A DNA stretch of 64,000 bases from Taeniopygia guttata (GCF_048771995.1 NC_133041.1:4663324-4727323), one strand, 5' to 3'. Shown: positions 519 to 43,296, numbered from the stretch's first letter. Notes: generated by a model from the letters alone, not told the origin. A program made the numbers and translations.

Positions 519-678
519 GTTCGTGTACGCCAAGGACCGCACGGACCGGATCCGCACCTGCGCCATCCTGTGCCACATCTACCACCACGCCCTGCACAGC
601 CGCTGGTACCGCGCCCGCGACCTGATGCTGATGTCGCACCTGCAGGACAACATCCAGCACGCCGACCCACCTGTGCAG
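519..678 (+). CDS. EIF3C: EIF3C internal exon, translating (R)[53 protein letters not shown]; first EIF3C exon inside the window, upstream exons lie before position 1
   Basis: The translation is near-identical to the human eIF3c segment ...[49 protein letters not shown]. The acceptor is cgcag|g at 518/519 and the donor gtgcag|gtgagt at 678/679; the reading frame is continuous with the next exon. Confidence 0.88.
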
Positions 679-679
679 G

Positions 680-1615
680 TGAGTCTGATACACCTGGGCA
701 GGTAAATCACACACCTGGGCAGGTAAATCACACACCTGAGGGGGTTAAACACACCTGCAGGACAACATCCAGCACGCCGACCCACCTGTGCAGGTGAGTC
801 TGATACACCTGAGGGGGTTAAACACACCTGGGCAGGTGAGTCTGATACACCTGGGCAGGTAAATCTGACACACCTGAGGGGGTTAAACACACCTGCAGGA
901 CAACATCCAGCACGCCGACCCACCTGTGCAGGTGAGGGACACACCTGAGGGGGTTAAACACACACCTGAGGGGGTTAAACACACCTGCAGGACAACATCC
1001 AGCACGCCGACCCACCTGTGCAGGTAAAGCACACCTGGGCAGGTGAGTCTGACACACCTGTGCAGGTAAATCACACACCTGAGGGGGTTAAACACACCTG
1101 GGCAGGTGAGTCTGACACACCTGTGCAGGTAAATCACACACCTGAGGGGGTTAAACACACCTGGGCAGGTGAGTCTGACACACCTGGGCAGGTGAGTCTG
1201 ACACACCTGAGGGGGTTAAACACACACCTGGGGGGGTTAAACACACCTGGGCAGGTGAGTCTGACACACCTGAGGGGGTTAAACACACCTGCAGGACAAC
1301 ATCCAGCACGCCGACCCACCTGTGCAGGTGAGTCACACCTGGGCAGGTGAGTCTGACACACCTGAGGGGGTTAAACACACACCTGAGGGGGTTAAACACA
1401 CCTGGGCAGGGAAATCACACACCTGGGGGGGTTAAACACACCTGCAGGACAACATCCAGCACGCCGACCCACCTGTGCAGGTAAAGCACACCTGGGCAGG
1501 TGAGTCTGACACACCTGAGGGGGTTAAACACACCTGGGCAGGGAAATCACACACCTGAGGGGGTTAAACACACCTGCAGGACAACATCCAGCACGCCGAC
1601 CCACCTGAGCCCTAA
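680..1615 (+). repeat. Tandem array (CACCTG-core minisatellite) containing six degenerate copies of the last ~45 nt of the EIF3C exon at 519-678 ([13 protein letters not shown] plus the donor caggtgag)
   Basis: Copies lie at about 752-796, 888-936, 982-1030, 1286-1334, 1437-1487 and 1570-1606. Five keep the GT donor; the last is truncated. Confidence 0.9.
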
Positions 1616-4600
1616 AATTGCCAAAAAAATTTCCAAAAAATGCTAAAAAAAATCCCCCAAAAATGCTAAAAAAAATCCCCCAAAATTGCCAAAAAAATCC
1701 CGCAAATTTTCCAAAAAAATTGCTAAAAAAAAACCCCAAAATTACTAAAAAAATCGCCCAAAATTGCCAAAAAAACGCCCCAAAATTGCTTAAAAAAATG
1801 CCCCAAAATTCCTAAAAAAATCACCCAAGTTTTCCACAAATCACCAAAAATTGCTAAAAAATCACCCAAAAGTTTCCAAAAATCACCCAAAATTTACAAA
1901 AAATCACCCAAAATTTACAAAAATCACCCACTTGTCTCATCTGAGACTCATCTGGGCATCCTCATTTTTTACCCTAAATCCCTCCAAAAATCCCCCTCAA
2001 AACCCCCTAAAATCACCCAAAAATCACTGAAAATTGCCAAAAATCCCCAAAATCCCCAAAACCCCCAAAATCTCCTTTTTTCCCGCAGATCCTGTACAAC
2101 CGCACCATGGTGCAGCTGGGCATCTGCGCCTTCCCTCACCTGTCCCACCTGTCCCAAGAAACCCCCTAAAACCCCCTAAAATCACCCAAAATTGCCAGAA
2201 AAGTCACCAAAAACCGCCTTAAATCACCCAAAATTGCTAAAAAATTCCCCAAAATTGCTAACAAATTTTTCCAAAATTTCTAAAAAAATCCCTCAAAAAT
2301 GCTAAAAATATTCCTAAATTTGCCCCAAAATTCCCCAAAATTGCCAAAAAAAATTCCAAAAATTGCTAAAAAAAACCACCCAGAATTTTCCAAAAATCAC
2401 CCTAAATTGCCAAAAAATCCCCCAAAATTGCCCAAAAAATCCCCCAAAATTTACAAAAAATCACCGAAAATTGTTAAAAAATCAACCAAAAATCACCAAA
2501 AAAATCCCCAAAATCCTCCCAAAATCACCAAAAATCCCCCTCAAAACCCCCAAAATCCCCCAAAAATCCCAAAAATTCCCAAAAACCCCCAAAAACCCCC
2601 CAAAAATCTCCTTTTTTTCCAGATCCTGTACAACCGCACGATGGTGCAGCTGGGCATCTGCGCCTTCCCTCACCTGTCCCACCTGTCCCAAGAAACCCCC
2701 TAAAATCACCCAAAATTGCCAGAAAAATCACCAAAAACCATCTAAAATCACCCAAAATGGCCAAAAAAATCACTAAAAACCACCTAAAATCACCCAAAAT
2801 TGCTAAAAAAATCACCCAAAATTTCAAAAAAAAAAATCCCAAAATTGCCCAAAAAATCCCCCAAAATTGCTAAAAAATCACTCAAAATTGCTAAAAAAAA
2901 ATCACACAAAATTTACAAAAAATCCCCCAAAATTGCTAAAAAATCCCCTAAAATTGCCCAAAAAATCACTCAAAATTGCTATAAAAAATCCCCCAAAATT
3001 GCCCAAAAAATCCCCCAAATTTGCTCAAAAAAATCCCCCAAAATTGCCAAAAAATCACTCAAAATTGCTAAAAAAATCACATAAAATTTACAAAAAATCT
3101 CCCAAAATTGCTAAAAAAATCCCCCCAAAGTGCCATAAAATCACCCAAAATTGCCAAAGAAATCCCTTAAAATAGCTAAAAAATCTCACAAAATTGCCAA
3201 AAAAATTCCCCAAATTTTCAAAAATAATCCCCCAAATTTTCCAAAAATCACCCAGAATCTCTAACAAAATTCCCCCAAAATGCTAAAAAATCCCCAAAAA
3301 TTGCTAAAATAAATCACCCCAAAATTTTTTTTTAAATCCCCCAAAATTGCTTAAAAATCCCAGAAAATTGCTAAAAAAATTCCCCAAAATTGCTAAAAAA
3401 ATTCCCCAAAATTGCTAAAAAAATTCCCCAAAATTGCTAAAAAAAATCACCCGAAATTGCAAAAAAAACCACCCAAAATTGTTTAAAAATCACCCAAAAA
3501 TCACCAAAAAAATCCCCAAAATCCTCCCAAAATCACCAAAAATCACCAAAAAAAACCCCAAAATTCCCAAAATCCCCAAAACTCCCCAAAACCCCAAAAA
3601 TCTCCTTTTTTTTCCCCAGATCCTGTACAACCGCACGATGGTGCAGCTGGGCATCTGCGCCTTCCCTCACCTGTCCCACCTGTCCCAAGAAACCCCCTAA
3701 AGTCACCCAAAATTGCCAAAAAAATCACCAAAAACCATCTAAAATCACCCAAAATGGCCAAAAAAATCACTAAAAACCACCTAAAATCACCCAAAATTGC
3801 TAAAAAAATCACCCAAAATTTAAAAAAAAAAATCCCAAAATTGCCCAAAAAATCCCCCAAAATTGCCAAAAAAATCACCCAAAATTGCTAAAAAAATCAC
3901 CCAAAAATGCTAAAAAATCTTCCCAAAATTGCTAAAAAGAAATCCCTTCAAAATAGCTGAAAAATCCCCTAAATTTGCCCCAAAAATCCCCCAAAATTGC
4001 CAAAAAAATCACCCAAAATTGCTAACAAAATTCCCCAAAATTGCTAAAAGAATTCCCCAAAATTGCTGAAAAATCACCCAAATTTGCTCAAAAAAATCCC
4101 CCAGAATTTTGCAAAAATCACCAAAATTGCCAATAAAATCACCCAAAATTGCCAAAAATCACCTACATTTTCCAAAAATCACCCACCTGTCCCACTTGGG
4201 ACTCACCTGGGCACCTCAAATCCTCATTTTTTACCCTAAATCCCCCTAAAAATCCATCAAAAATCTCCCTCAAAACCCTCTAAAATTCCCCCAAAGCCCC
4301 TTAAAATCACTGAAAATTGCCAAAAATCACCAAAAACCCCCAAAAATCTCCCTTTTATCCCCAGATCCTGTACAACCGCACGATGGTGCAGCTGGGCATC
4401 TGCGCCTTCCCTCACCTGTCCCAAGAAACCCCCTAAAACCCCCTAAAATCACCCAAAATTGCCAGAAAAATCACCCAAAATTGCTAATAAAATTCCCCAA
4501 AATTGCTAAAAAAATCACCCAAATTTGCCAAAAAAATTCTTCAAAAATGCAAAAAAAATTCCCAAAAAATGTTTAAAAAATTCCCCAAAATTGCTAAAAA

Positions 4601-6475
4601 AATCACCCAAGATGTACAAAAAATGACTCGAAATTGCCAAAAAATACCCCAAATATTGCCAAAAAAATTGCCCAAAAATTCCCCAAAATTGCTTAAAAAT
4701 CCCTCAAAATTGCGAAAATAAATCCCCCAAAAATGCTAAAAAACCCCCCCAAAATGCTAAAAAAATCCCCTAAAATTGCAAAAAAAATCACCCAAAATTG
4801 CCAAAAAAAGCACCCAAAATTACTAAAAAATTTCCCAAAAATGCTAAAAATTCCCTTTAATTTGCCCCAAAAATCAGCCAAAATTGCCAAAGAAGTCCCT
4901 CAAAAATGCTAAAAAAATCCCCCAAAATTGCCATAAAATCCCCCAAAATTTTCCAAAAATCCCCCAAAATTGCCAAAAAAATCCCCCAAAAATCCCCAAA
5001 AACCCCCCAAAATCCCCAAAAATCCCAAAAAATCTCCTTTTTCCCAGCTCCTGTACAACCGCACGATGGTGCAGCTGGGCATCTGCGCCTTCCCTCACCT
5101 GTCCCAAGAAACCCCCTAAAATCACCCAAAATTCCCAAAAAAATCCCCCAAAATTGCTAAAAAAATCCCCCAAAATTGCCATAAAATCTCCCAAAATTGC
5201 TAAAAAATCCCGCAAAGCTGCTAAAAAAATCACCCAAAATTACCCAAAATATCCCCCAAAATTTACAAAAAACTACCCAAAAATGCTGAAAAATCCCCCA
5301 AAATTGCTAAAAAGAAATCCTCTCAAAATAGCTGAAAAATCCCCTAAATTTGCCCCAAAAATCCCCCAAAATTGCTCAAAAAATCCCCCAAAATTTCTTT
5401 AAAAATCCCTCAAAAATGCTAAAAAATGACCCAAAAATCCCCCCTAATTTACAAAAAATCACCCAAAATTGCTATAAATATTCCCTAAAATTGCTAAAAA
5501 AATCACTCAAAAGTCCCATAAAATCACCCAAAATTGCCAAAAATCACCCACATTTTCCAAAAATCACCCAAAATTGCTAAAAAAATCCCCCAAAATTGCC
5601 AAAAAAATTCCCAAAAATGCTAAAAATATCCCCCAAAATTTACAAAAAATTCCCAAAAATTGCCAAAAAATTACCAAAAAAATTCCCAAAATTCCCCAAA
5701 ATCCCAAAAAAAACCCCCAAAATCTCCAAAACTTTTTTTTTTGCAGATCCTGTACAACCGCACGATGGTGCAGCTGGGCATCTGCGCCTTCCCTCACCTG
5801 TCCCAAGAAACCCCTGAAAACCCCCTAAAATCACCCAAAATTGCCAGAAAAGTCACCAAAAACCATCTAAAATCACCTAAAATTGCCAAAAAAATTACAA
5901 AAAACCGCCTTAAATCACCCAAAATTGCTAAAAAAATCACCCAAAATTTCAAAAAAAAAATCCCAAAATTGCCAAAAAAATCCCCCAAATTTGCCCCAAA
6001 AAATCCCCCAAAATGCTAAAAAATCTCACTAAATTGCCAAAAAACTTCCTAAAATTCCTAAAAAATCCCACAAAATTGCTAAAGAAATCCCCCAAAAATG
6101 ATAAAAAAGTCACCCAGAATTTTCCAAAAATCACCCAAAATTGCCAAAAAAATCCCCCAAAATTGCTAAAAGAATCACCCAGAATGTTCCAAAAATCACC
6201 CAAAATTGCCAAAAAAAATCCCAAAAAATGCTAAAAAATATTCGAAGTTGCTAAAAAAACATCAAAATTGCCATAAAATCACCCAAAATTGCCCAAAAAC
6301 TCACCCAAAATTGCCAAAAAAATTCAACTAAATTGCCAAAAAAATCCCCCAAAATTTACAAAAAATCCCCCAAAAATCACCCAAAATTGTTAAAAAATCA
6401 CCCAAAAATCACAAAAAAACACCCCAAAATTCCCAAAACCCCCAAAAAACCCAAAAACCCCTTTTTTCTCCCCAG
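1616..6475 (+). repeat. 4.8-kb A-rich microsatellite-like array (ccaaaattgccaaaaaaatcacc variants) organised as ~0.7-kb higher-order units, each carrying a copy of the first ~50 nt of the next EIF3C exon with its acceptor (cag|ATCCTGTACAACCGCACGATGGTGCAGCTGGGCATCTGCGCCTTCC)
   Basis: Pseudo-exon copies lie at about 2089, 2623, 3619, 4364, 5048 (an atc-to-ctc variant) and 5747. The real exon starts at 6476. After gccttcc, every copy diverges to ctcacctgtccc. Confidence 0.9.
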
Positions 6476-6839
6476 ATCCTGTACAACCGCACGATGGTGC
6501 AGCTGGGCATCTGCGCCTTCCGGCAGGGGCTGATCAAGGACGCGCACAACGCGCTGCTGGACATCCAGAGCTCCGGCCGGGCCAAGGAGCTGCTGGGCCA
6601 AGGTCTTCTCCTGCGCAGCCTCCAGGAGCGCAACGCCGAGCAGGAGAAGGTGGAGAAGCGCCGCCAGGTGCCCTTCCACATGCACGTCAACCTGGAGCTC
6701 CTCGAGTGCGTCTACCTGGTGGCCGCCATGCTGCTGGAGATCCCCTACATGGCGGCGCACGAGTTCGACGCGCGCCGCCGCATGATCAGCAAGCAGTTCC
6801 ACCACCAGCTGCGCGTGGGCGAGAGGCAGCCGCTGCTGG
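6476..6839 (+). CDS. EIF3C: EIF3C exon, translating [122 protein letters not shown]
   Basis: About 95% identity to the PCI-domain region of human eIF3c. The acceptor is ccccag|atc and the donor ctgctgg|gtgagg, leaving phase 1 to join the next exon. Confidence 0.9.
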
Positions 6840-9171: not shown

Positions 9172-9331
9172 GTCCCCCCGAGTCGATGCGGGAGCACGTG
9201 GTGGCCGCCTCCAAGGCCATGAAAACGGGCGACTGGCGGCGCTGCCATCGCTTCGTGGTCAATGAGAAGATGAACGGAAAGGTCTGGGACCTGTTCCCCG
9301 AGGCCGACCAGGTGCGCGCCATGCTGGTCAG
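9172..9331 (+). CDS. EIF3C: EIF3C exon, translating (G)[53 protein letters not shown]
   Basis: Matches human [53 protein letters not shown]. The acceptor is cccccag|gt and the donor gtcag|gtgagc. Confidence 0.9.
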
Positions 9332-9339
9332 GTGAGCAC

Positions 9340-10600
9340 ACCAAAATTTGGGGGGTTTTGGGAAAATTTGGGCGAAATTTGGGCGATTTTTGGCCATTTT
9401 TTGGTGATTTTATAGTGATTTTTGGGGGGTTTTTAGGGGCATTAAAGGGTTAAAAATGAGGGTTTGAGGTGCTCAGGTGAGTCTCAGGTGAGCCTCAGGT
9501 GAGTCAGGTGAGTCCCACCTGGGCCAATTAAAAATTTTGGGGGATTTTGGGAAATTTTGGGCGAATTTTGGCAATTTTGAGCAATTTTACGGTGATTTTT
9601 TAGAGATTTTCGGGGGTTTTTGGGGAGGATTTTCGGCAGGAAATGAGGATTTAAAGTGATCAGGTGTGTCTCAGGTGAGTCTCACCTGGGCAGGTGTGGC
9701 CAGGTTAAAAAAAACTGTGAATTTTGGGGGATTTTGGGCAATTTTGGGTGAATATTGCCAATTTCGGATAATTTTTGGCATTTTTAAGTGATTTTTGGGG
9801 GTTTTGGGGTGATTTTGGCCGTTTTGGGGGGATTTGGGGAGGTTCAAAGTCTGGGACCTGTTCCCCGAGGCCGACCAGGTGCGCGCCATGCTGGTCAGGT
9901 GAGCGACCCCAAATTTTGGGGGGTTTTGGGAAAATTTGGGCGAAATTTCGGCGATTTTTGGCCATTTTTGGGCGATTTTATAGCGATTTTTAGGGGTTTT
10001 TTTGGGGCGTTAAGGGTTAAAAATGAGGATTTGAGGTGCTCAGGTGAGTCTCAGGTGAGCACACCTGGACACAGGTGAAAAAATTTAGGGGGAATTTTCA
10101 GGGATTTTGGGCAATTTTGGGCAAATTTTGGCCATTTTTGGGTGATTTTAGAGGGATTTTAGAGGGATTTTTGGGGGTTTTTGGGGAGATTTACGGTTAA
10201 AAATGAGGATTTGAGGTGCTCAGGTGAGTCTCAGGTGAGTCTCAGGTGAGCACACCTGGACACAGGTGAAAAATTTTTGGGGTAAATTTGGGCAAATTTT
10301 GGCAATTTTGGGTGAATTTTCGGCAATTTTGAGCGATTTTAGGGCGGTTTTATGGGGATTTTCGGGGTTTTTTGGGAGATTTAGGGTTAAAAATGAGGAT
10401 TTGAGGTGCTCAGGTGAGTCTCAGCTGAGTCTCACCTGGGCAGGTGTGGCCAGGTAAAGAAAAACGTGAATTTCGGGGAATTTTGGGCGAATTTTGGCAA
10501 TTTTGGGTGATTTTAGGGGGATTTTAAGAGAATTTGGGGTAAAAAATGTGGATTTGAGGTGCCCAGGTGCACCCAGGTGTGCCCAGGTAAGGAAATTTAG
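9340..10600 (+). repeat. Intronic array of ~250-bp units ending in gtgctcaggtgagtctcaggtgagc; one unit (9848-9898) contains a copy of the 3' end of the EIF3C exon at 9172-9331 with its donor
   Basis: gtctgggacctgttccccgaggccgaccaggtgcgcgccatgctggtcag|gtgagcg at 9848-9898 duplicates 9281-9338. Confidence 0.85.
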
Positions 10601-15300: not shown

Positions 15301-16413
15301 GGGGTTACCTGCAGCACAGGTGAGTCACCTGTGACCCCGTTTGGGGCCATTTTGGGGTGATTTTGGTCGGGTTTGGGGCAATTTTGGGCAGTTTTGGGGC
15401 AATCTCAGGTGGGTTTTCAGGGGTTACCTGCAGGACAGGTGAGCCTCACCTGGGCCCACTTTAGACCTCACTGGATGAGCCCAAGGTCACCACGATGATG
15501 GGGTGACCCCATTTGGGGCCATTTTGGGGTGATTTTGGGCAGGTTTGGGGTGATTTTTGGTAGTTTTGGGGTGATTTCGGGTGGGTTTTTGGGGGTTACC
15601 TGCAGGACAGGTGAGTCTCACCTGGGCCCACTTTAGACCTCACTGGATGAGCCCAAGGTCACCATGATGGTGGGGTGACCCCATTTGGGGCCATTTTGGG
15701 GTGATTTTGGGCAGTTTTGGGGCGATTTTGGGTGGGTTTTTGGGGGGGTTACCTGCAGGACAGGTGAGTCTCACCTGGGCACACCTGCAGGCCTCGCTGG
15801 ACCAGCCCACGGCCACGGTGATGATGGGGTGACCCCGTTTGTGGCCATTTTGGGGTGATTTTGGGCAGTTTTGGGGTGATTTTGGATGGGTTTTTGGGGC
15901 GGTTACCTGCAGGACAGGTGAGTCTCACCTGGGCACACCTGCAGGCCTCGCTGGACCAGCCCACAGCCACGGTGATTGTGGGTTGACCCCATTTGATGCC
16001 ATTTTGGGGTGATTTTGAGCAGGTTTGGGGCAGTTTTGGGGTGATTTCGGGTGGGTTTTTGGGGGTTACCTGCAGGACAGGTGAGCCTCACCTGGGCCCA
16101 CTTAAGACCTCACTGGATGAGCCCAAGGCCACCATGATGATGGGGTGACCCCGTTTGGGGCCATTTTGGGGTGATTTTGGGCAGTTTTGGGACGATTTTG
16201 GGTGGGTTTTTGGGGGGTTACCTGCAGGACAGGTGAGTCTCACCTGGGCACACCTGCAGGCCTCGCTGGACCAGCCCACAGCCACGGTGATGATGGGGTG
16301 ACCCCGTTTGGGGCCATTTTGGGGTTATTTTGGGCAGTTTTGGAGCGATTTCGGGTGGGTTTTTGGGGGGGTTACCTGCAGGACAGGTGAGTCTCACCTG
16401 GGCACACCTGCAG
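15300..16413 (+). repeat. About seven tandem ~120-bp units, each containing a copy of the acceptor and first ~45 nt of the EIF3C exon at 16414 (cacctgcag|GCCTCGCTGGACCAGCCCACGGCCACGGTGATGATG..)
   Basis: Close copies lie at about 15783, 15939 and 16250. Diverged copies (..ctcactggatgagcccaaggtcaccacgatgatgggg) lie at about 15461, 15630 and 16100. Confidence 0.88.
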
Positions 16414-16576: not shown

Positions 16577-16744
16577 GTGAGCACACCTGGGCACACCTGG
16601 GCACACCTGGGGGCACCTGGGAGGGAGAGAACAAAAAAAACCCGGTGGAAATGGGGTGAAAAATGGGGATTTTGGGGGGTTTTTGGGTTACCTGGGCACA
16701 CCTGAGCCCTGCCCCGTTCTCACCTGTCCCATCTTGTCCTGCAG

Positions 16745-20561: not shown

Positions 20562-20569
20562 GTGAGACC

Positions 20570-22380
20570 CACAAGTGGGGGGCGGGACCCATAGAGACAG
20601 CCCTGACCCATAGACAGACCCATAGACAGACCCACAAGTGGGGGGCAGGACCCATAGAGACAGCCCTGCCCCATAGAGAGCCCTGCCCCATAGACAGAGC
20701 CCTGACCCATAGATGGAGCCTGACCCATAGACAGACCCATAGACAGACCCACAAGTGGGGGGCGGGCCCCATAGAGAGCCTGACCCATAGACAGACCCAT
20801 AGAGAGAGCTGTGACCCATAGACAGACCCAGAGACAGACCCATAGATGGAGCCCTGACCCATAGACAGACCCATAGATGGAGCCCTGCCCAATAGACAGA
20901 GCCCTGCCCCAGAGACAGACCCAGAGACAGACCCACAAGTGGGGGGCAGCACCCCATAGACAGAGCCCTGACCCATAGAGAAACTCCATTTCCCCCCATT
21001 TCCCCCAATTTCTCCCCATTTTATTCCCCCCATTTCCCCCAAAATTTCTCCCCATTTCCCCCATTTTTTTTACGTTTTCCCCAATTTTTTCCCAAATTTT
21101 CCCCAATTTTTCCCTATTTCCTCCCCTTTTTTTTCAAATTTCCCCCAATTTTCCCCATTTTCCCCCATTTTCCCCCATTTCCCCCCCATTTCCCACCCAT
21201 TTTCCCCCATTTTTTTTACTTTTTTCCCAATTTTTCCCCATTTCCCCCAATTCTTTTCAATTTTTTCCCAATTTTTCCCAATTTTACCCAATTTTCCCCA
21301 TTTTCCCCCATTCCCCCCATTTTCCTGCCCATTCCCCCCCATTTTCCCCCCATTTCCCCCCATTTTATCCCCATTTTCCCCCCTTTTTTTTCAATTTTTC
21401 CCAATATTTTCCCAATTTCCCCCCATTTCTCCCCATTTCCCCCCATTTTCTCCTTTTCCCCCCATTTCTCCCCATTTCTCCCCATTTTACTCAATTTTTT
21501 CTCATTTTTCCCCATTTTTCCCCATTTTCCCCATTTTTCCCCATTTTTCCCCATTTTTCCCCCATTCCCCCAATTTCCCCCCATTTCCCCCCATTTTTTC
21601 CTATTTTTTCCCAATTTTTCCCCCATTTCCCCCAATTTCCCCCCATTTCCCCCCATTTTCTCCCCAATTTCCCCCCATTTCCCCCAACTTTATCCCCATT
21701 TTTCCACATTTTCCCCCATTTTCTCCATTTTTCCCCCTTTTTTTTTCCATTTTTCCCTATTTTCCCCCATTTCCCCCCATTTTTCCCCATATCTTCCCAT
21801 TTTATCCCAATTTTGCCCCATTTTTTCCCAATTTTCCCCCATTTCCCCTATTTTTTTTCTATTTTTTTTCAATTTTTTTTCAATTTTTTCCCAATTATCC
21901 CCAATTTTTTCCCATTTCCCCCATTTTTTCCCCATTTTTCCCTATTTCCCCCCTTTTTTTTCAATTTTTCCCAATATTTTCCCAATTTCCCCCCATTCCC
22001 CCCATTTTTTTCCCAATTCCCCCCATTTTCTCCCCATTTCCCCCCATTTTCCCCTTTTTATCTCCATTTTCCCCCATTTCCCCCATTTTCCTCCATTTTT
22101 TCCTAATTTTTTCCCAATTTCCCCCCAATTTTCACCATTTCCCCCCATTTTATCCCCATTCTTCCTCATTTTTTCCCCATTTCCCCCATTTTTCCCAATT
22201 TTCCCCCTTTTTCCCCCATTTCCCCCCATTTCTCCCCATTTTCTCCCCAATTTCCCCCAATTTTTTTCGTTTTTTTTTCCCGATTTTCCCGATTTTCCCC
22301 CATTTTATCCCCATTTTACCCATTTTCCCCATTTTTTTTCAATTTTTTCTCATTTTTCCCCATTTCCCCCAATTTCCCCC
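20570..22380 (+). repeat. Two adjoining intronic arrays: gacccatagacagacc units (20570-20990), then ccccatttcccccaatttt units (20990-22380)
   Basis: Seen directly. Confidence 0.85.
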
Positions 22381-22589: not shown

Positions 22590-23740
22590 ACTTGGGGGGC
22601 ACTTGGGGGGCGGCTGTGGGGTGGTTGTGGGGGTTTGGGGTCACTGATGGAGCAGTTGTGGGGCAGTTATGGGGTCACTTATGGGGCAGTTATGGGGTTT
22701 GGGGTCACTTATGGGGCACTTATGGGGCAGTTATGGGGTTTGGGGTCACTTATGGGGCACTTATGGGGCAGTTATGGGGCAATTATGGGGTTTTGGGGTC
22801 AATTGTGGGGCGGTTATGGGGTCAATTATGGGGCAGTTATGGGGGCACTTGGGGGGTGCAGGGGGCACTGGGGGAGTGTGGGGGGCACTAATGGGGCAGT
22901 TATGGGGCAGTTATGGGTCACTAATGGGGTGTGGGGGTCACTTATGGGGCAGTTATGGGGTTTTGGGGTCACTTATAGGTCACTAATGGGGCAGTTATGG
23001 GGCAGTTATGGGGGTTTGGGGTCACTTATGGGGCAGTTATGGGGTTTTGGGGGCACTTGTGGGGCAGTTTCGGGGTCACTAATGGGGTTTTGGGGTCACT
23101 AATGGGTCACTTGTGGGTCATTTGTGGGTCACTGATGGGGTTTGGGGTCACTTATGGGTCACTGATGGAGTTTGGGATCACTTGTGGGGCAGTTTCGGGG
23201 TCCCTTATGGTGCTCGGGGGTCACTTGTGGGGCAGGGAGGAGTTTGGGGTCACTTATGGGTCACTCGTGGGTCACTGATGGGGTTTTGGGGTCACTTATG
23301 GGTCACTTACAGGTCACTCATGGGGTGTAGGGGTCACTTGTGGGTCACTAATGGGGTTTTGGGGTCACTTATGGGGTGTAGGAGTCACTGATGGGGCAGT
23401 TATGGGGTCACTTGTGGGTCGTTTTAGGGTCACTTGTGGGGCAATTATGGGTCACTGATGGGGTTTTAGGGTCACTTGTGGGTCATTGATGGGGTTTTGG
23501 GGTCACTTACGGGGCAGTTCTGGGGTCACTTGTGGGGCAGTTCTGGGGTCACTTGTGGGGTTTGGGGTCACTTGTGGGGCAGGGAGGCGCAGCTGCAGCA
23601 GAACTGTGGGGCAGCGCTCCGATGTGTGGGGCAGTTCTGGGTCACTTGTGGGGCAGGGAGGCTCTCAGTGTCACTTGTGGGGCAGTTATGGGGCAGTTCT
23701 GGGTCACTTGTGGGGCAGTTATGGGTCACTTGTGGGGCAG
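22590..23740 (+). repeat. Array of ggggtcacttatggggcagttatgg units; its last units (about 23575-23640) carry a copy of the 5' half of the PRODH2 exon at 23741
   Basis: gcagggaggcgcagctgcagcagaactgtggggcagcgctccgatgtgtggggcag at 23577-23632 copies 23738-23793. Confidence 0.85.
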
Positions 23741-23861
23741 GGAGGCGCGGCTGCAGCAGAACTGTGGGGCGGCGCTCCGATGTGTGGGGCTGGCGGCGGC
23801 CGCGGGCCCCGAACCCGCGATGCAGCTGAAGCTGACGGCGCTGCTGGACCCACGGCTCTGC
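23741..23861 (+). CDS. PRODH2: PRODH2 exon, translating (G)EARLQQNCGAALRCVGLAAAAGPEPAMQLKLTALLDPRLC
   Basis: Aligns to human GEAWYEGNLGAMLRCVDLSRGLLEPPSLAEASLMQLKVTALTSTRLC. The acceptor is tggggcag|g and the donor ctctgc|gtgagt. Confidence 0.78.
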
Positions 23862-23869
23862 GTGAGTGG

Positions 23870-24900
23870 GGCGGGTGTGGGGCAGAGGGGATCTGTGGGG
23901 CAGGGATCTGTGGGGCAGGGGGATCTATGGGGTGGGATCTGTGGGGCAGGGTGTGGGGCAGGGGTATGGGGTCTATGGGGCTGAAGCTGACGGCGCTGCT
24001 GGACCCACGGCTCTGCGTGAGTGGGGCGGGGGGATCTGTGGGGCGGGATGTGGGGCAGGGTGTGGGGTCTATGGGGTGGGGATCTGTGGGGCGGGATCTA
24101 TGGGGCAGGGTGTGGGGCAGGGATGTGGGGCAGGGTGTGGGGTCCATGGGGCAGGGGGATGTGTGGGGCAGGGGGATCTGTGGGGTGGGATCTGTGGGGC
24201 AGGGTGTGGGGTGGGGATGTGGGGTCTATGGGGTCTATGGGGCAGGGGATGTGTGGGGAAGGCAGATGTGGGGTGGGATCTGTGCGGTGGGATCTGTGGG
24301 GCAGGGGTATGTGTGGGGCAGGGGGATCTATGGGGCAGGGACCTATGGGGCAGGGGTGTGGTGGGATCTGTGGGGCAGGAGATCTGTGGGGCAGATTTGG
24401 GATCTATGGGGCAGATTTGGGATCTATGGGGCAGGGCTGTGATCTATGGGGCAGATTTAGGATCTATGGGGCAGGATTGGAATCTATGGGGCAGATTTGG
24501 ATCTATGGGGCAGATTTGGGATCTATGGGGCAGATTTGGGATCTATGGGGCAGATTCGGGATCTATGGGGCAGATTTGGGATCTATGGGGCAGGATTGGG
24601 ATCTATGGGGCAGATTTGGGATCTATGGGGCAGATCAATGGGGCAGGATCGGGATCTATGGGGCAGGATTAAATCTATGGGTCAGGATTAAATCTCTGGG
24701 GCACATTCGGATCTATGGGGCAGATTTGGATCTATGGGGCAGGATTGGGATCTATCGGGCAGGATTGGGATCTATGGGGCAGATTTGGATCTATGGGGCA
24801 GATTTGGGATATATGGGGCAGATTTGGATCTATGGGGCAGATCTATGGGGCAGGATCGGGATCTATGGGGCAGGATTAAATCTATGGGGCAGGATTAAAT
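23870..24900 (+). repeat. Array of gggatctatggggcag(atttgg) units, with a second copy of the 3' half of the PRODH2 exon at 23741-23861 embedded at 23975-24022 (ggctgaagctgacggcgctgctggacccacggctctgc|gtgagtgggg)
   Basis: Seen directly. Confidence 0.85.
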
Positions 24901-26129: not shown

Positions 26130-27117
26130 GTGAGCGCACCTGGGCACCTGGGGGCACCTGGGCGCACCTGGGGGCACCTGGGGGCACCTGGGAGGGGCGG
26201 GGCAAAAAAAACCCGGTGGAAATGGGGTGGAAAATGGGGATTTTGGGGGGTTTTGGGGGTACCTGGGAACACCTGGGGGGGTAAAAACACACCTGGGCAC
26301 AGCTGGGCACAGCTGGGGCACATTTTGGGGTACTTGGAGCACACCTGGGCACATTTTGGGCACATTTTGGGCACACTTTGGGCACACCTGGGCACACCTG
26401 GGGTATATTTTGGGCACATTTTGGGCACATTTTGGGCACACCTGTCCCCCCCAGGACACCAAGGCCCGGCTTGGGGCACACCTGGGCACACCTGGGGCAC
26501 ATTTTGGGGTACCTTGGGCAAACCGGGGGCACACCTGGGTACACCTGGGGCACATTTTGCGGTACCTGGGGCACACCTGGGCCCACTTAAATACACCTGG
26601 GCACACCTGGGCACACCTGGGGCACATTTTGGGTATATTTTGGGCACACCTGTCCCCCCAAGACACGGAGTCCCGGCTCGGGGCTCACCTGGGCACACCT
26701 GGGGGGTACCTGTGACACACCTGGGCACACCTGGGGGATATTTTGGGCACATTTTGGGCACATTTTGGGCACACCTGGGGGTACCTGTGTCACACCTGTC
26801 CCCCCAGGACACGGAGTCGCGGCTCGGGGCTCACCTGGCGCAGGTGGGGCACACCTGGGGGATATTTTGGGTATATTTTGGGTATATTTTGGGTATATTT
26901 TGGGCACACCTGTCCCCCCAGGACACGGAGTCCCTCCTCGGGGCTCACCTGGGCACACCTGGGTGATATTTTGGGCACATTTTGGGTATATTTTGGGCAC
27001 ACCTGTCCCCCCAGGACACCAAGTCCCGGCTCGGGGCTCACCTGGCGCAGGTGGGGCACACCTGGATGATATTTTGGGTATATTTTGGGTATATTTTGGG
27101 CACACCTGTCCCCCCAG
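26130..27117 (+). repeat. CACCTGGGCACA / cattttgggcacattttggg array carrying five copies of the acceptor and first ~40 nt of the PRODH2 exon at 27118 (cccccag|GACAC[CG][AG]AG[GT]CCCGGCT[CT]GGGGC.CACCTGG)
   Basis: Copies lie at about 26445, 26652 (caag, acceptor lost), 26800, 26908 and 27008. Several extend to tcacctggcgcaggtg before diverging. Confidence 0.88.
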
Positions 27118-40759: not shown

Positions 40760-43140
40760 GACACCCCTGACCCCTGACCTCTGACCCCTGACCTCTGACC
40801 TCTGACCCCTGACCACTGACCACTGACCCCTGACCACTGACTGCTGACCTCCTGACCCTCCAAATGACCCCTGAGTGACCCCGAACCACCCCTGAGTGAC
40901 CTTTTGACCTCCCAAACCGCCCCTAGGTGACTTTTTGACCCTCTGACCGACCCCTGACTGACCCCTTGACCCCTGACTGACCCCTTGACCACCAGAATGA
41001 CCCCTTGTCCACCTGAGTGTCCCCTTGACCACCCGAGTGACCCCTTGACTGACCCCTTGGCCCCTTGAGTGACCTTTTGACCTCCCAAACCACCCCTAAA
41101 TGACCTTTTAACCCCCTCAATGACCCCTGACTGACCCCTTGACCACCTGAGTGACCCCTCGACTGACCCCTTGAGTGACCTCTTGACCCTCCCAATGACC
41201 CCTGAGTGACCTTTTGACTGCCCAAACCACCCCTAAATGACCTTTTAACCCCCTAAATTACTTTTTAACCCCCTGACTGACCCCTTGATGACCCAAGTGA
41301 CCCCTTGTCCATCTGAGTGACCCCTCGACTGACCTCTTGACCCCTTGACTCACCTCTTGACCCTCCAAATGACCCCTTGAGTGACCTCTTGACCCTCCAA
41401 ATGACCCCTAAGTGACCCCGAACCACCCCTGAATGACCTTTTGACCTCCCAAACTGCCCCTAAATAACCTTTTAACCCCCTAAATGACTTTTTAACCCCC
41501 CGCCTGACCCCTGACTGACCCCGTGACCCTTGTGTGACCCTTGACTGACCCCTGACTGACCCCTGACTGACCCCTTGACCCCTTGACTGACCTCTTGACC
41601 CTCCCAATGACCCCTGAGTGACCTTTTGACTGCCCAAACCACCTTTAAATGACCTTTTAACCCCCCAAATGACGTTTTAACCCCCTCAATGACTTTTTAA
41701 CCCCCCAAGTGACCCCTGACTGACCCCTTGACCACCTTACTGAACCCTTGACCCCTTGAGTGACCTTTTGACCTCCCAAACCGCCCTTAAATGACCTTTT
41801 AACCCCCTCAATGACTTTTTAACCCACCAAATGACCCCTGAAGGACTTGTTAACCCCCTAAATGACCCCTGCCTGACCCCGTGACCCCTGACTGACCCTT
41901 GACTGACCCCTGACTGACCCCTGACTGACTCCTTGACCACCCGAGTGACCCCTTGACTGACCTCTTGACCCTCCAAATGATCCCTAAGTGACCCCGAACG
42001 ACCCCTGAATGACCTTTTGACCCCCCAAACTATCCCTAAACGACCTTTTAACCCCCTGACTGACCCCGTGACCCCTGAATGACCCCTTGACCACCTGAGT
42101 GACCCCAAACCACCCCTGAATGACCTCTTGACCCTCCAAATGACCCCTGAATGACCTTTTGACCACCCAAACCGGCCTTAAATGACTTTTTAACCTCCTA
42201 AGTGACTTTTTAACTCCCTTAATGACTTTTTAACCCCCCAAATGACCCCTGACTGACCCCTTGTCCACCTGACTGACCCCTAACCCCTTGAGTGACCTTT
42301 TGACCACCCAAACCATTTTTAAATGGCCATTTAACCCCCAAAATGACTTTTTAACCCACCAAATGACCCCTGAAGGACTTGTTAACCCCCCGCCTGACCC
42401 CTGCCTGACCCTGTGACCCCTGACTGACCCCTGTGTGACCCCTGCCTGACCCCTGACTGGCCCCTTGACCACCTGAGTGACCCCTTGACTGACCTCTTGA
42501 CTCTACAAATGACCCCTGAATGACCCCGAACCACCCCCTAATGACCTTTTGACCACCCAAACTGTCCCTAAACGACCTTTTAACCCCCTGACTGACCCCT
42601 GACTGACCCCTTGACCACCCGAGTAACCCCTTGACCACCCCTTGACCCTCTGAGTGACCCCTCGACTGACCCCTTGACCCCTTGAGTGACCTTTTGACTG
42701 CCCAAACCACCTTTAAATGACCTTTTAACCCTTTATGTGACTTTTTAAACCTCCTAAATGACCTTTTAATGCCCCAAATGACTTTCTAACCCCCTGACTG
42801 ACCCCTGCCTGACCCCGTGACCCCTGTGTGACCCCTGTGACCCCCTCAGCGGTGCGAGGCGGCGTTCGCCACGCGGGACCGGCTGCGGGCGCATTCGGCG
42901 CGGCACCAGGAGAAATCACTGACTGACCCCTGACTGACCCCTGACTGACCCCTGCCTGACCCCCTGACCCCTGTGTGACCCCTGTGACCCCTGTCAGCGG
43001 TGCGAGGCGGCGTTCGCCACGCGGGACCGGCTGCGGGCGCATTCGGCGCGGCACCAGGAGAAATCACTGACTGACCCCTGACTGACCCCTGACTGACCCC
43101 TGCCTGACCCCCTGACCCCTGTGTGACCCCTGTGACCCCT
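40760..43140 (+). repeat. tgacccctgactgacccc / tgacc.tttaacccc arrays with two truncated copies of the MAZ exon-4 head (42848-42915 and 43006-43072)
   Basis: ccctcag|CGGTGCGAGGCGGCGTTCGCCACGCGGGACCGGCTGCGGGCGCATTCGGCGCGGCACCAGGAGAAATC is present three times. Only the third copy continues into the rest of the exon. Confidence 0.88.
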
Positions 43141-43145
43141 GTCAG

Positions 43146-43296
43146 CGGTGCGAGGCGGCGTTCGCCACGCGGGACCGGCTGCGGGCGCATTCGGCGCGGC
43201 ACCAGGAGAAATCCCCGTGTCCCGTCTGCGGGAAACTGCTCAGCCCCGCCCACCTCGGGGAGCACCTGCGCGGCCACGGACACGCCCCCAGGACAG
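43146..43296 (+). CDS. MAZ: MAZ exon, translating RCEAAFATRDRLRAHSARHQEKSPCPVCGKLLSPAHLGEHLRGHGHAPRT(G)
   Basis: Matches human KCEAAFATKDRLRAHTVRHEEKVPCHVCGKMLSSAYISDHMKVHSQGP. The acceptor is gtcag|cgg and the donor acag|gtcagc. Two truncated copies of the 5' part lie just upstream at 42848-42915 and 43006-43072. Confidence 0.85.

Follow-up and report, generated by a model that had tools for sequence, protein, structure and literature searches.

The EIF3C gene of Taeniopygia guttata raises the question of how an essential translation-factor gene came to hold an intron in which the edges of both neighboring exons are repeated in series, and how it is spliced correctly despite 18 near-consensus decoy donors and 6 decoy acceptors of full strength. 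The intron (679–6475) lies within a stretch of 64,000 nucleotides (GCF_048771995.1 NC_133041.1:4663324-4727323; hereafter the window) and had been described in an original prediction as carrying six donor-bearing and six acceptor-bearing pseudo-exons. We consider it highly probable that this structure is exon stuttering, i.e., local repeat instability of gene-rich avian dot-chromosome euchromatin, in a passerine EIF3C. Exon stuttering, or "sequence stuttering", was described for chicken dot-chromosome genes and illustrated on PHF8 (Hron et al. 2026, Genome Biol Evol, PMC12954441), and is published for chicken EIF3C and MAZ; the window holds a songbird instance and not a new phenomenon. Modest additions made here are a single breakpoint per exon edge, the hexamer CACCTG at the junctions, breakpoints common to two songbirds, and apparent concerted evolution with the real exon.

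Serial copies of both exon edges fill the EIF3C intron

The two exons that flank the intron, exon A (519..678; FVYAKDRT...) and exon B (6476..6839; ending ...RQPLL), both on the plus strand, were joined and translated, yielding a gapless alignment to residues 554–727 of human eIF3c (E = 7e-110, ∼97% identity), with exon A contiguous with residues 554–606. Since the translated exons align without a gap, the assignment to EIF3C and both exon boundaries in the original prediction are correct, and the first copy on the donor side and the last copy on the acceptor side are the real exon edges. Both parental exons and the coding sequence are intact. The real donor of exon A (CAG/GTGAGT, a slash marking the junction here and below) matches the U1 consensus at 8/9 positions, and that of exon B reads TGG/GTGAGG. 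The nearest database relatives of the translation are partial bird proteins, from Zonotrichia leucophrys (100% identical) and from pigeon and turaco (98% identical).

Copies of the exon A edge were located with a 44-nt donor probe (CACCTGCAGGAC...GTGCAG plus GT), for which 100 dinucleotide-preserving shuffles served as control. Exact matches begin at 637 (the real edge), 752, 890, 982, 1286, and 1439, while the shuffles yielded none. Five plus-strand copies of 42 nt thus follow the real exon, at 752..793 (100% identical, then GTGAGT), 890..931 (then GTGAGG), 982..1023 (then GTAAAG), 1286..1327 (then GTGAGT), and 1439..1480 (then GTAAAG). A sixth, truncated copy of 37 nt (1571..1607, plus strand) stops directly after its second CACCTG and joins A-rich satellite without a donor, bringing the donor-side span to ∼0.97 kb (637–1607). 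The prediction of serial exon A edge copies with a donor was therefore borne out, but not their number or length, given as six of 45 nt.

On the acceptor side, a 46-nt probe from the start of exon B matched with 0–1 mismatch at 2089, 2623, 3620, 4365, 5048, 5747, and 6476 (real), and never in shuffled sequence. The six copies, all on the plus strand, extend over 2089..2146 (one mismatch, ACC for ACG), 2623..2680, 3620..3677, 4365..4422, 5048..5105 (first base A to C), and 5747..5804, the remaining four being without mismatch. Each is preceded by a polypyrimidine tract and AG of a quality that matches the real site (pyrimidine fraction 0.71–0.94 versus 0.88), such that all six decoy acceptors of the original prediction were located. 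Alignment of the seven acceptor regions places the end of the exon-derived sequence at one and the same base in 6/6 copies (GCCTTCC/CTCACCTGTCCC, versus GCCTTCC/GGCAGGGG where the real exon continues), exactly as had been claimed. Successive acceptor regions are 534, 997, 745, 683, 699, and 729 bp apart over a span of ∼4.4 kb (2089–6521), in rough agreement with the predicted ∼0.7-kb unit. The gaps are filled by an A/C-rich satellite (1610..6461, plus strand) with a 21–22-bp unit (AAAATCACCCAAAATTGCCAAA), a 10–11-bp sub-period, and 4 AATAAA motifs, and rows reported by Tandem Repeats Finder (TRF) span nearly the whole intron. The probe matches, with none in the shuffles, bear out the central claim that both exon edges, together with their splice signals, have been copied directly and in series to build the intron.

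Each edge has one breakpoint, with CACCTG at the junctions

A single breakpoint was observed per edge, identical in all copies of that edge. All copies are direct, on the sense strand, and confined to the intron adjoining their parental exon, and no copy in the A–B intron fuses exon A to exon B sequence. One breakpoint per edge points to a single capture followed by amplification. The breakpoint pattern also supports part of the original proposal, namely tandem duplication or unequal exchange across the junctions, but not seeding at the boundaries themselves, as each breakpoint is internal to its exon, at 42 nt in exon A and 46 nt in exon B, and the unit spans the boundary.

Identity among copies, counted over substitutions only, is 100% for the 42-nt exon A piece, 98.6% for the 46-nt exon B piece, and 100% for the 12 nt that follow the latter (CTCACCTGTCCC), as compared to 63–86% for the flanks of either array. 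The copy identity of 90–98% given earlier was too low, the exon-derived pieces being 97.8–100% identical. Whole-unit identity of the ∼0.7-kb units (82–89%) was considered as evidence and set aside, since an alignment of two arbitrary stretches of the 22-bp satellite is about equally good; breakpoints and unique cores were relied on instead.

The exon A copies have the hexamer CACCTG at their 5' boundary (...TTAAACA-CACCTG-CAGGAC), and the last of them has it where it is truncated (CCCACCTG/AGCCCTAAAA); the hexamer is found again in the sequence directly after the exon B copies (CTCACCTGTCCC). It is also present twice in the end of exon A, 30 nt apart, and its reverse complement, CAGGTG, overlaps the donor consensus. 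Its recurrence at the junctions and in the exon A end suggests that CACCTG probably served as microhomology for slippage or template switching, which would offer a sequence basis for the breakpoints in a CACCTG/CAGGTG motif that overlaps the donor consensus. The DNA of the donor array folds with z = −2.57, only 1/100 shuffles folding equally well, and this hairpin propensity lends weak support to a structure-driven mechanism.

The copies carry one splice site each

Every GT in the intron was scored against the 9-nt U1-complementary consensus with a cut-off of at least 7/9. Besides the real donor, 18 decoy donors reach this cut-off, all within the first 942 nt of the intron (679–1620), in place of the 5 counted originally. 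Five of the 18 belong to the 42-nt exon A copies; the other 13 belong to short 21–23-bp units (CACCTGGGCAG/GTGAGTCTGAC, CAG/GTAAAT, ACACACCTGAGGGGGTTAAAC) that TRF and the donor scan place among the longer exon A units of the donor-side array (679..1620, plus strand). These short units correspond to the exon A junction (CACCTGTGCAG/GTGAGTCTGAT) minus the 30 nt between its two CACCTG repeats, as in CACCTGGGCAG/GTGAGTCTGAC, and a deletion between the repeats would produce them.

In the remaining 4.85 kb (1621–6475), no GT exceeds a 4/9 U1 match, leaving the acceptor copies without a partner donor. The donor copies, in turn, are preceded by a sole AG (cacacctgcag/GACAAC) in a purine-rich context with 41% pyrimidines at −20 to −4. 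By these measures the copies are half-exons with one splice site each, contrary to their earlier description as pseudo-exons. Nor would use of the decoys insert in-frame duplications, as had been proposed, given that premature stops arise instead. If exon A is extended to a decoy donor, whichever it is, the transcript gains 115 nt or more and a TAA comes up after 24 nt, while entry at a decoy acceptor reads ...GICAFPHLS(HLS)QETP and then a stop after 23–27 codons, or after 90 codons for the last copy. The only possible in-frame product is a 33-nt mini-exon that depends on the weak acceptor.

Exon definition in vertebrates and nonsense-mediated decay (NMD) provide the basis for expecting that the decoys are mostly ignored and that mis-spliced products are degraded. 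Tolerance of the arrays would be accounted for in this way, the copies being half-exons any use of which leads to a premature stop. Given RNA data, the locus could conveniently be used to test, in a natural setting, how a splice site is chosen from many equal ones.

Recursive splicing was also considered. Recursive splice sites regenerate a donor through an AG/GT juxtaposition, and they resemble the present case in that internal acceptors within a long intron could in principle permit its stepwise removal. The decoy acceptors, however, read cag/ATCCTG or cag/CTCCTG; with no AG/GT, no donor is regenerated, and this candidate was rejected.

In the A-rich satellite (1610–6461), phased A-tracts are present and AATAAA lies at 3308, 4132, 4486, and 4717. 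The motif at 4486 is ∼50 nt past the stop codon of the frame entered at the decoy acceptor at 4365, a pairing that might possibly allow a truncated terminal-exon isoform.

Exon-edge copies recur in other introns and in MAZ

The feature is not peculiar to the A–B intron, as two more introns of EIF3C, the MAZ gene, and other birds have it too. Further EIF3C copies in the window came to light when fragments of bird EIF3C served as tblastn queries. In the second intron after this one, the final 53 nt of exon C (real exon 9172–9331) recur at 9846..9898 on the plus strand, followed by GTGAGC, with 98.3% identity over 59 nt. Upstream of exon F (real start 16414), its acceptor and first 36 nt are present three times on the plus strand (15791–15826, 15945–15980, and 16260–16295) in an array of 154-bp units. 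MAZ, the second gene of the window, lies ∼21 kb downstream of EIF3C on the same strand and was identified by its best named matches (MAZ, myc-associated zinc finger protein). Two plus-strand copies of an acceptor and ∼72 nt of a MAZ zinc-finger exon (CQRCEAAFATRDRLRAHSARHQEKS; tblastn 100% identity) lie at ∼42847–42918 and 42992–43066, ∼147 bp apart and upstream of the real exon starting near 43140 (region 42847–43289).

Within the 190-bp unit of the C–D intron is TCAGGTGAGCACACC, a match to the donor junction of exon C. The unit of the E–F intron contains GGGGGTTACCTGCAGGACA-GGTGAGTCTCACCTGGGCA, which resembles an exon A copy with a 29-nt deletion, and spread of units of the exon A edge to that intron was therefore considered. 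Segments of the C–D intron score equally well or better (60.4 versus 58.8), with a maximum of 55.8 for random segments from 17–64 kb. The likeness to exon A is that of a shared CAGGTGAGTCT/CACCTG repeat family, and spread is not demonstrable. Of CAGGTGAGTCT itself there are 21 occurrences, all on the plus strand and all in several introns of the EIF3C part (0–17 kb), with zero in the other 47 kb.

Copies in other birds and concerted evolution with the parental exon

An orthologous 18.7-kb contig from Zonotrichia leucophrys (JAPPSN020000949.1) has introns only 75–90% identical to those of the window, marking it as a different species. The contig begins downstream of exon B, and the comparison covers the introns that follow. 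Zonotrichia has its own copies of the exon B 3' edge (two), exon C 5' edge (one), exon C 3' edge (one), exon E 3' edge (two), and exon F 5' edge (six). Exon-edge copies lie in the contig at 3321–3359, 4699–4752, 8859–8908, 9723–9772, and 11378–12280. Copy numbers differ between the window and Zonotrichia, at 3 versus 6 for the exon F edge and 0 versus 2 for the exon B 3' edge. The 3' copy of exon C and the 5' copies of exon F, in contrast, have breakpoint flanks common to both, indicating that those copies are older than the species split.

Within exon C, species-specific synonymous states (GTC or GTT, CTG or CTC) are common to each species' real exon and its own copy. This sharing indicates concerted evolution by unequal exchange or gene conversion, which accounts for the uniformity of the cores without function; stutter copies can thus survive speciation while being homogenized against the real exon.

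The NCBI gene model for Zonotrichia EIF3C (protein P0068; contig positions 316–1959) joins two partial copies, both from the 3' end of exon B, via a mini-exon from a 143-bp satellite (LKMAVLDLLDVPQTM). This model is probably an annotation artifact produced by exon stuttering, and it illustrates that stutter arrays can mislead automated annotation.

Six further sequences (L004–L009) represent 19 contigs from Logan assemblies of public runs (ERR152852xx, ERR7254637), from one bird unrelated to the window species. In L004 (245–340, the real exon B being at ∼415), and likewise in L005–L009, an ∼85-nt copy of the exon B 5' edge lies without an AG inside a CCCCGCCCC repeat. Its breakpoint differs from that in the window, and the EIF3C introns there are mostly short; the copy seems to be a separate capture of that edge. 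Upstream of exon B, the 600–900 bp covered in Tauraco (L003) and in another sauropsid (L002) contain satellites but no copy. In L002 (Logan SRR31752268), the exon B donor motif GGTGGGTAGACCT is repeated in the downstream intron (1300–1433), and the sequence upstream of exon B (1–130) is filled with the motif GGGTAGACC, as in the intron downstream of that exon. These motif repeats could represent either junction-derived stuttering or an assembly-graph tangle.

Comparison with known systems

The published screen for exon stuttering detected it in 115 genes with 236 introns, of which 190 are on dot chromosomes, after 77/192 candidate genes had been discarded, chiefly for wrong annotation (PMC12954441). 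In chicken, as here, partial lateral copies of an exon with its donor or acceptor form tandem-like clusters in the adjacent intron, the parental exon remains intact, and simple repeats make up nearly all of the intron. The source sequence lies at most 1 base away from the border of the exon in >90% of published cases; the present copies reach exactly to the border, with a GT donor or a polypyrimidine tract and AG. Published ranges are 20–187 bp for the exon part (median 36), 1–44 copies (median 4), and a span of 112–23,555 bp, and the values of the window (42 and 46 nt, 5+1 and 6 copies, ∼1 and ∼4.4 kb) fall within them. Furthermore, the same two genes are neighbors in the window and in chicken, where the supplement lists EIF3C (chr38:191080-288434) and then MAZ (chr38:339873-355391). 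In contrast to the published cases, the window is from a passerine and not chicken, with lineage-specific satellites and breakpoints. Splice-site competence, breakpoint microhomology, between-species breakpoint sharing, and concerted evolution are treated here and not in that study, whose authors "only speculate" on mechanism, naming replication stress or non-B DNA, or meiotic gene conversion.

Among other systems, decoy exons promote intron retention in introns >1 kb (Parra et al. 2018, PMC6097662; 2020, PMC7373989), as exemplified by the OGT detained intron (PMC12017769). The EIF3C intron is similarly large, with internal sites able to engage terminal sites unproductively, but published decoys are conserved, regulated cryptic exons with both 3' and 5' sites, whereas the window copies, known here from sequence, have one site each in variable arrays. 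Classical decoy-exon architecture was rejected on this ground, in view of the U1 scan of 1621–6475 and the weak cag upstream of the donor copies. Intronic satellite DNA has been reviewed for gigantic genes (Fingerhut and Yamashita 2022, cited in PMC12954441), and a telomere-to-telomere zebra finch preprint describes minisatellites with A-phased and direct repeats in euchromatic introns of dot chromosomes (bioRxiv 10.1101/2025.10.14.682431). Repeat-dominated introns are common to these reports and the window, whose 10–11/21–22-bp A-phased periodicity fits, but the repeats they describe are purely intronic, with no exon-edge copies bearing splice sites. Neither the exon stuttering paper nor this preprint treats the EIF3C locus in a passerine.

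Origin of the arrays

A direct duplication unit bridged each exon–intron junction and took in 42 nt of exon A or 46 nt of exon B. At the donor edge, the copy that continues the upstream coding sequence stays real and the rest are stranded downstream in the intron; at the acceptor edge, the last copy stays real and the rest are stranded upstream. In the proposed course of events, each edge would have been captured once and then amplified, and independent, later expansion of the short-period satellite between copies would account for units of 534–997 bp. Unequal exchange or gene conversion would keep the exon-derived cores near the parental exon, while low-complexity flanks scramble. The copies would be non-adaptive passengers, tolerated because one splice site each cannot satisfy exon definition, and transcripts that use a decoy would gain a premature stop and be expected to undergo NMD.

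Several points weigh against this reading. The gap in identity between cores and flanks could also come from selection on the cores, and alignments of the satellite flanks are ambiguous, lowering their apparent identity. Repeated re-copying from the parental exon via the same CACCTG is indistinguishable from single capture and amplification. Placement on a dot chromosome is inferred from synteny, the EIF3C–MAZ order being that of chicken chr38, and the extreme repeat content and GC-rich exons fit such a location. That decoys go unused, or that their products are removed by NMD, would follow from splice-site logic. Finally, exact copy numbers depend on assembly quality, the A–B intron being known from one assembly of the species.

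A functional alternative is that the copies act as splicing decoys, in which 18 U1 sites and six U2AF-competent acceptors engage the real sites unproductively and give regulated intron retention or detention, or in which U1 is recruited against premature polyadenylation within the A-rich satellite, EIF3C output being tuned in either case. The decoy sites equal the real ones in strength (8/9 U1; pyrimidine fractions as above), conservation is much higher in the exon-derived cores than in their flanks, copies in other EIF3C introns in some cases keep their breakpoints across two songbirds, the intron has 4 AATAAA motifs, and a decoy-exon model exists for introns >1 kb (PMC6097662, PMC7373989). 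That model nonetheless requires both splice sites, of which each copy in the window has one, and core conservation is explained by concerted evolution with a selected parental exon. Similar copies occur at many exon edges and in MAZ, their numbers vary by species (3 versus 6 for exon F), some are found in one species only (e.g., the exon B 3' edge), Tauraco and the sauropsid of L002 lack a copy in the 600–900 bp before exon B, and lengths vary extensively from one chicken to another (PMC12954441). We regard functional decoys as improbable. Correspondingly small is the chance that the arrays form a maintained splice-site sponge (18 U1 sites, then six U2AF sites), one that sets the rate of intron removal or shields the A-rich satellite from premature polyadenylation; if true, it would provide tunable, copy-number-dependent control of eIF3c dosage. 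In a weaker version of the sponge, the copies could be gene-conversion partners that return changes to an essential exon.

The remaining alternatives have yet less in their favor. Regions of this kind are hard to sequence and assemble, and the window's read-through open reading frame across exon B is not found in any other public assembly, as might be expected if the real intron held one copy per edge and the repeat-rich region had been falsely expanded. Yet the units differ in length (534–997 bp), satellite content, and point substitutions (ACC for ACG at 2089, C for A at 5048), independent assemblies of other birds show like structure in the same gene, and the PHF8 arrays were verified with raw nanopore reads (PMC12954441), making an assembly artifact very unlikely. 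Least likely of all is the separate arrival of exon fragments, for instance as retro-copied or transposed pieces of EIF3C mRNA or DNA. Such insertions would be in keeping with exon-derived sequence inside unrelated satellite and with the different breakpoint in L004, but the copies share a breakpoint and intronic flank (polypyrimidine tract and AG, or GT) absent from spliced mRNA, all are direct and limited to the adjacent intron, and neither a joined exon A–exon B copy, a target-site duplication, nor an inverted orientation was seen. Exon stuttering thus remains the favored explanation.

Further features of the window

Tandem repeats masked by TRF (period up to 200) take up 81.6% of the 64-kb window, the remainder being mostly short GC-rich islands (exons). 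Strand composition switches sharply between arrays, with GC skew ranging from −0.98 to +0.94. In the rest of the window, open reading frames are dominated by those derived from satellite, and MAZ is the one gene there to which a confident identity could be given. Between EIF3C and MAZ, one GC-rich island (20565–20604) has partial edge copies at 20628, 20745, and 20929, and a second (23741–23875) has such copies at 23583 and 23980; these may represent more exon stuttering. The 73 nt just upstream of the last EIF3C coding exon (16632–16704) recur with 94.5% identity at 26203–26275, ∼9.5 kb downstream and outside EIF3C.

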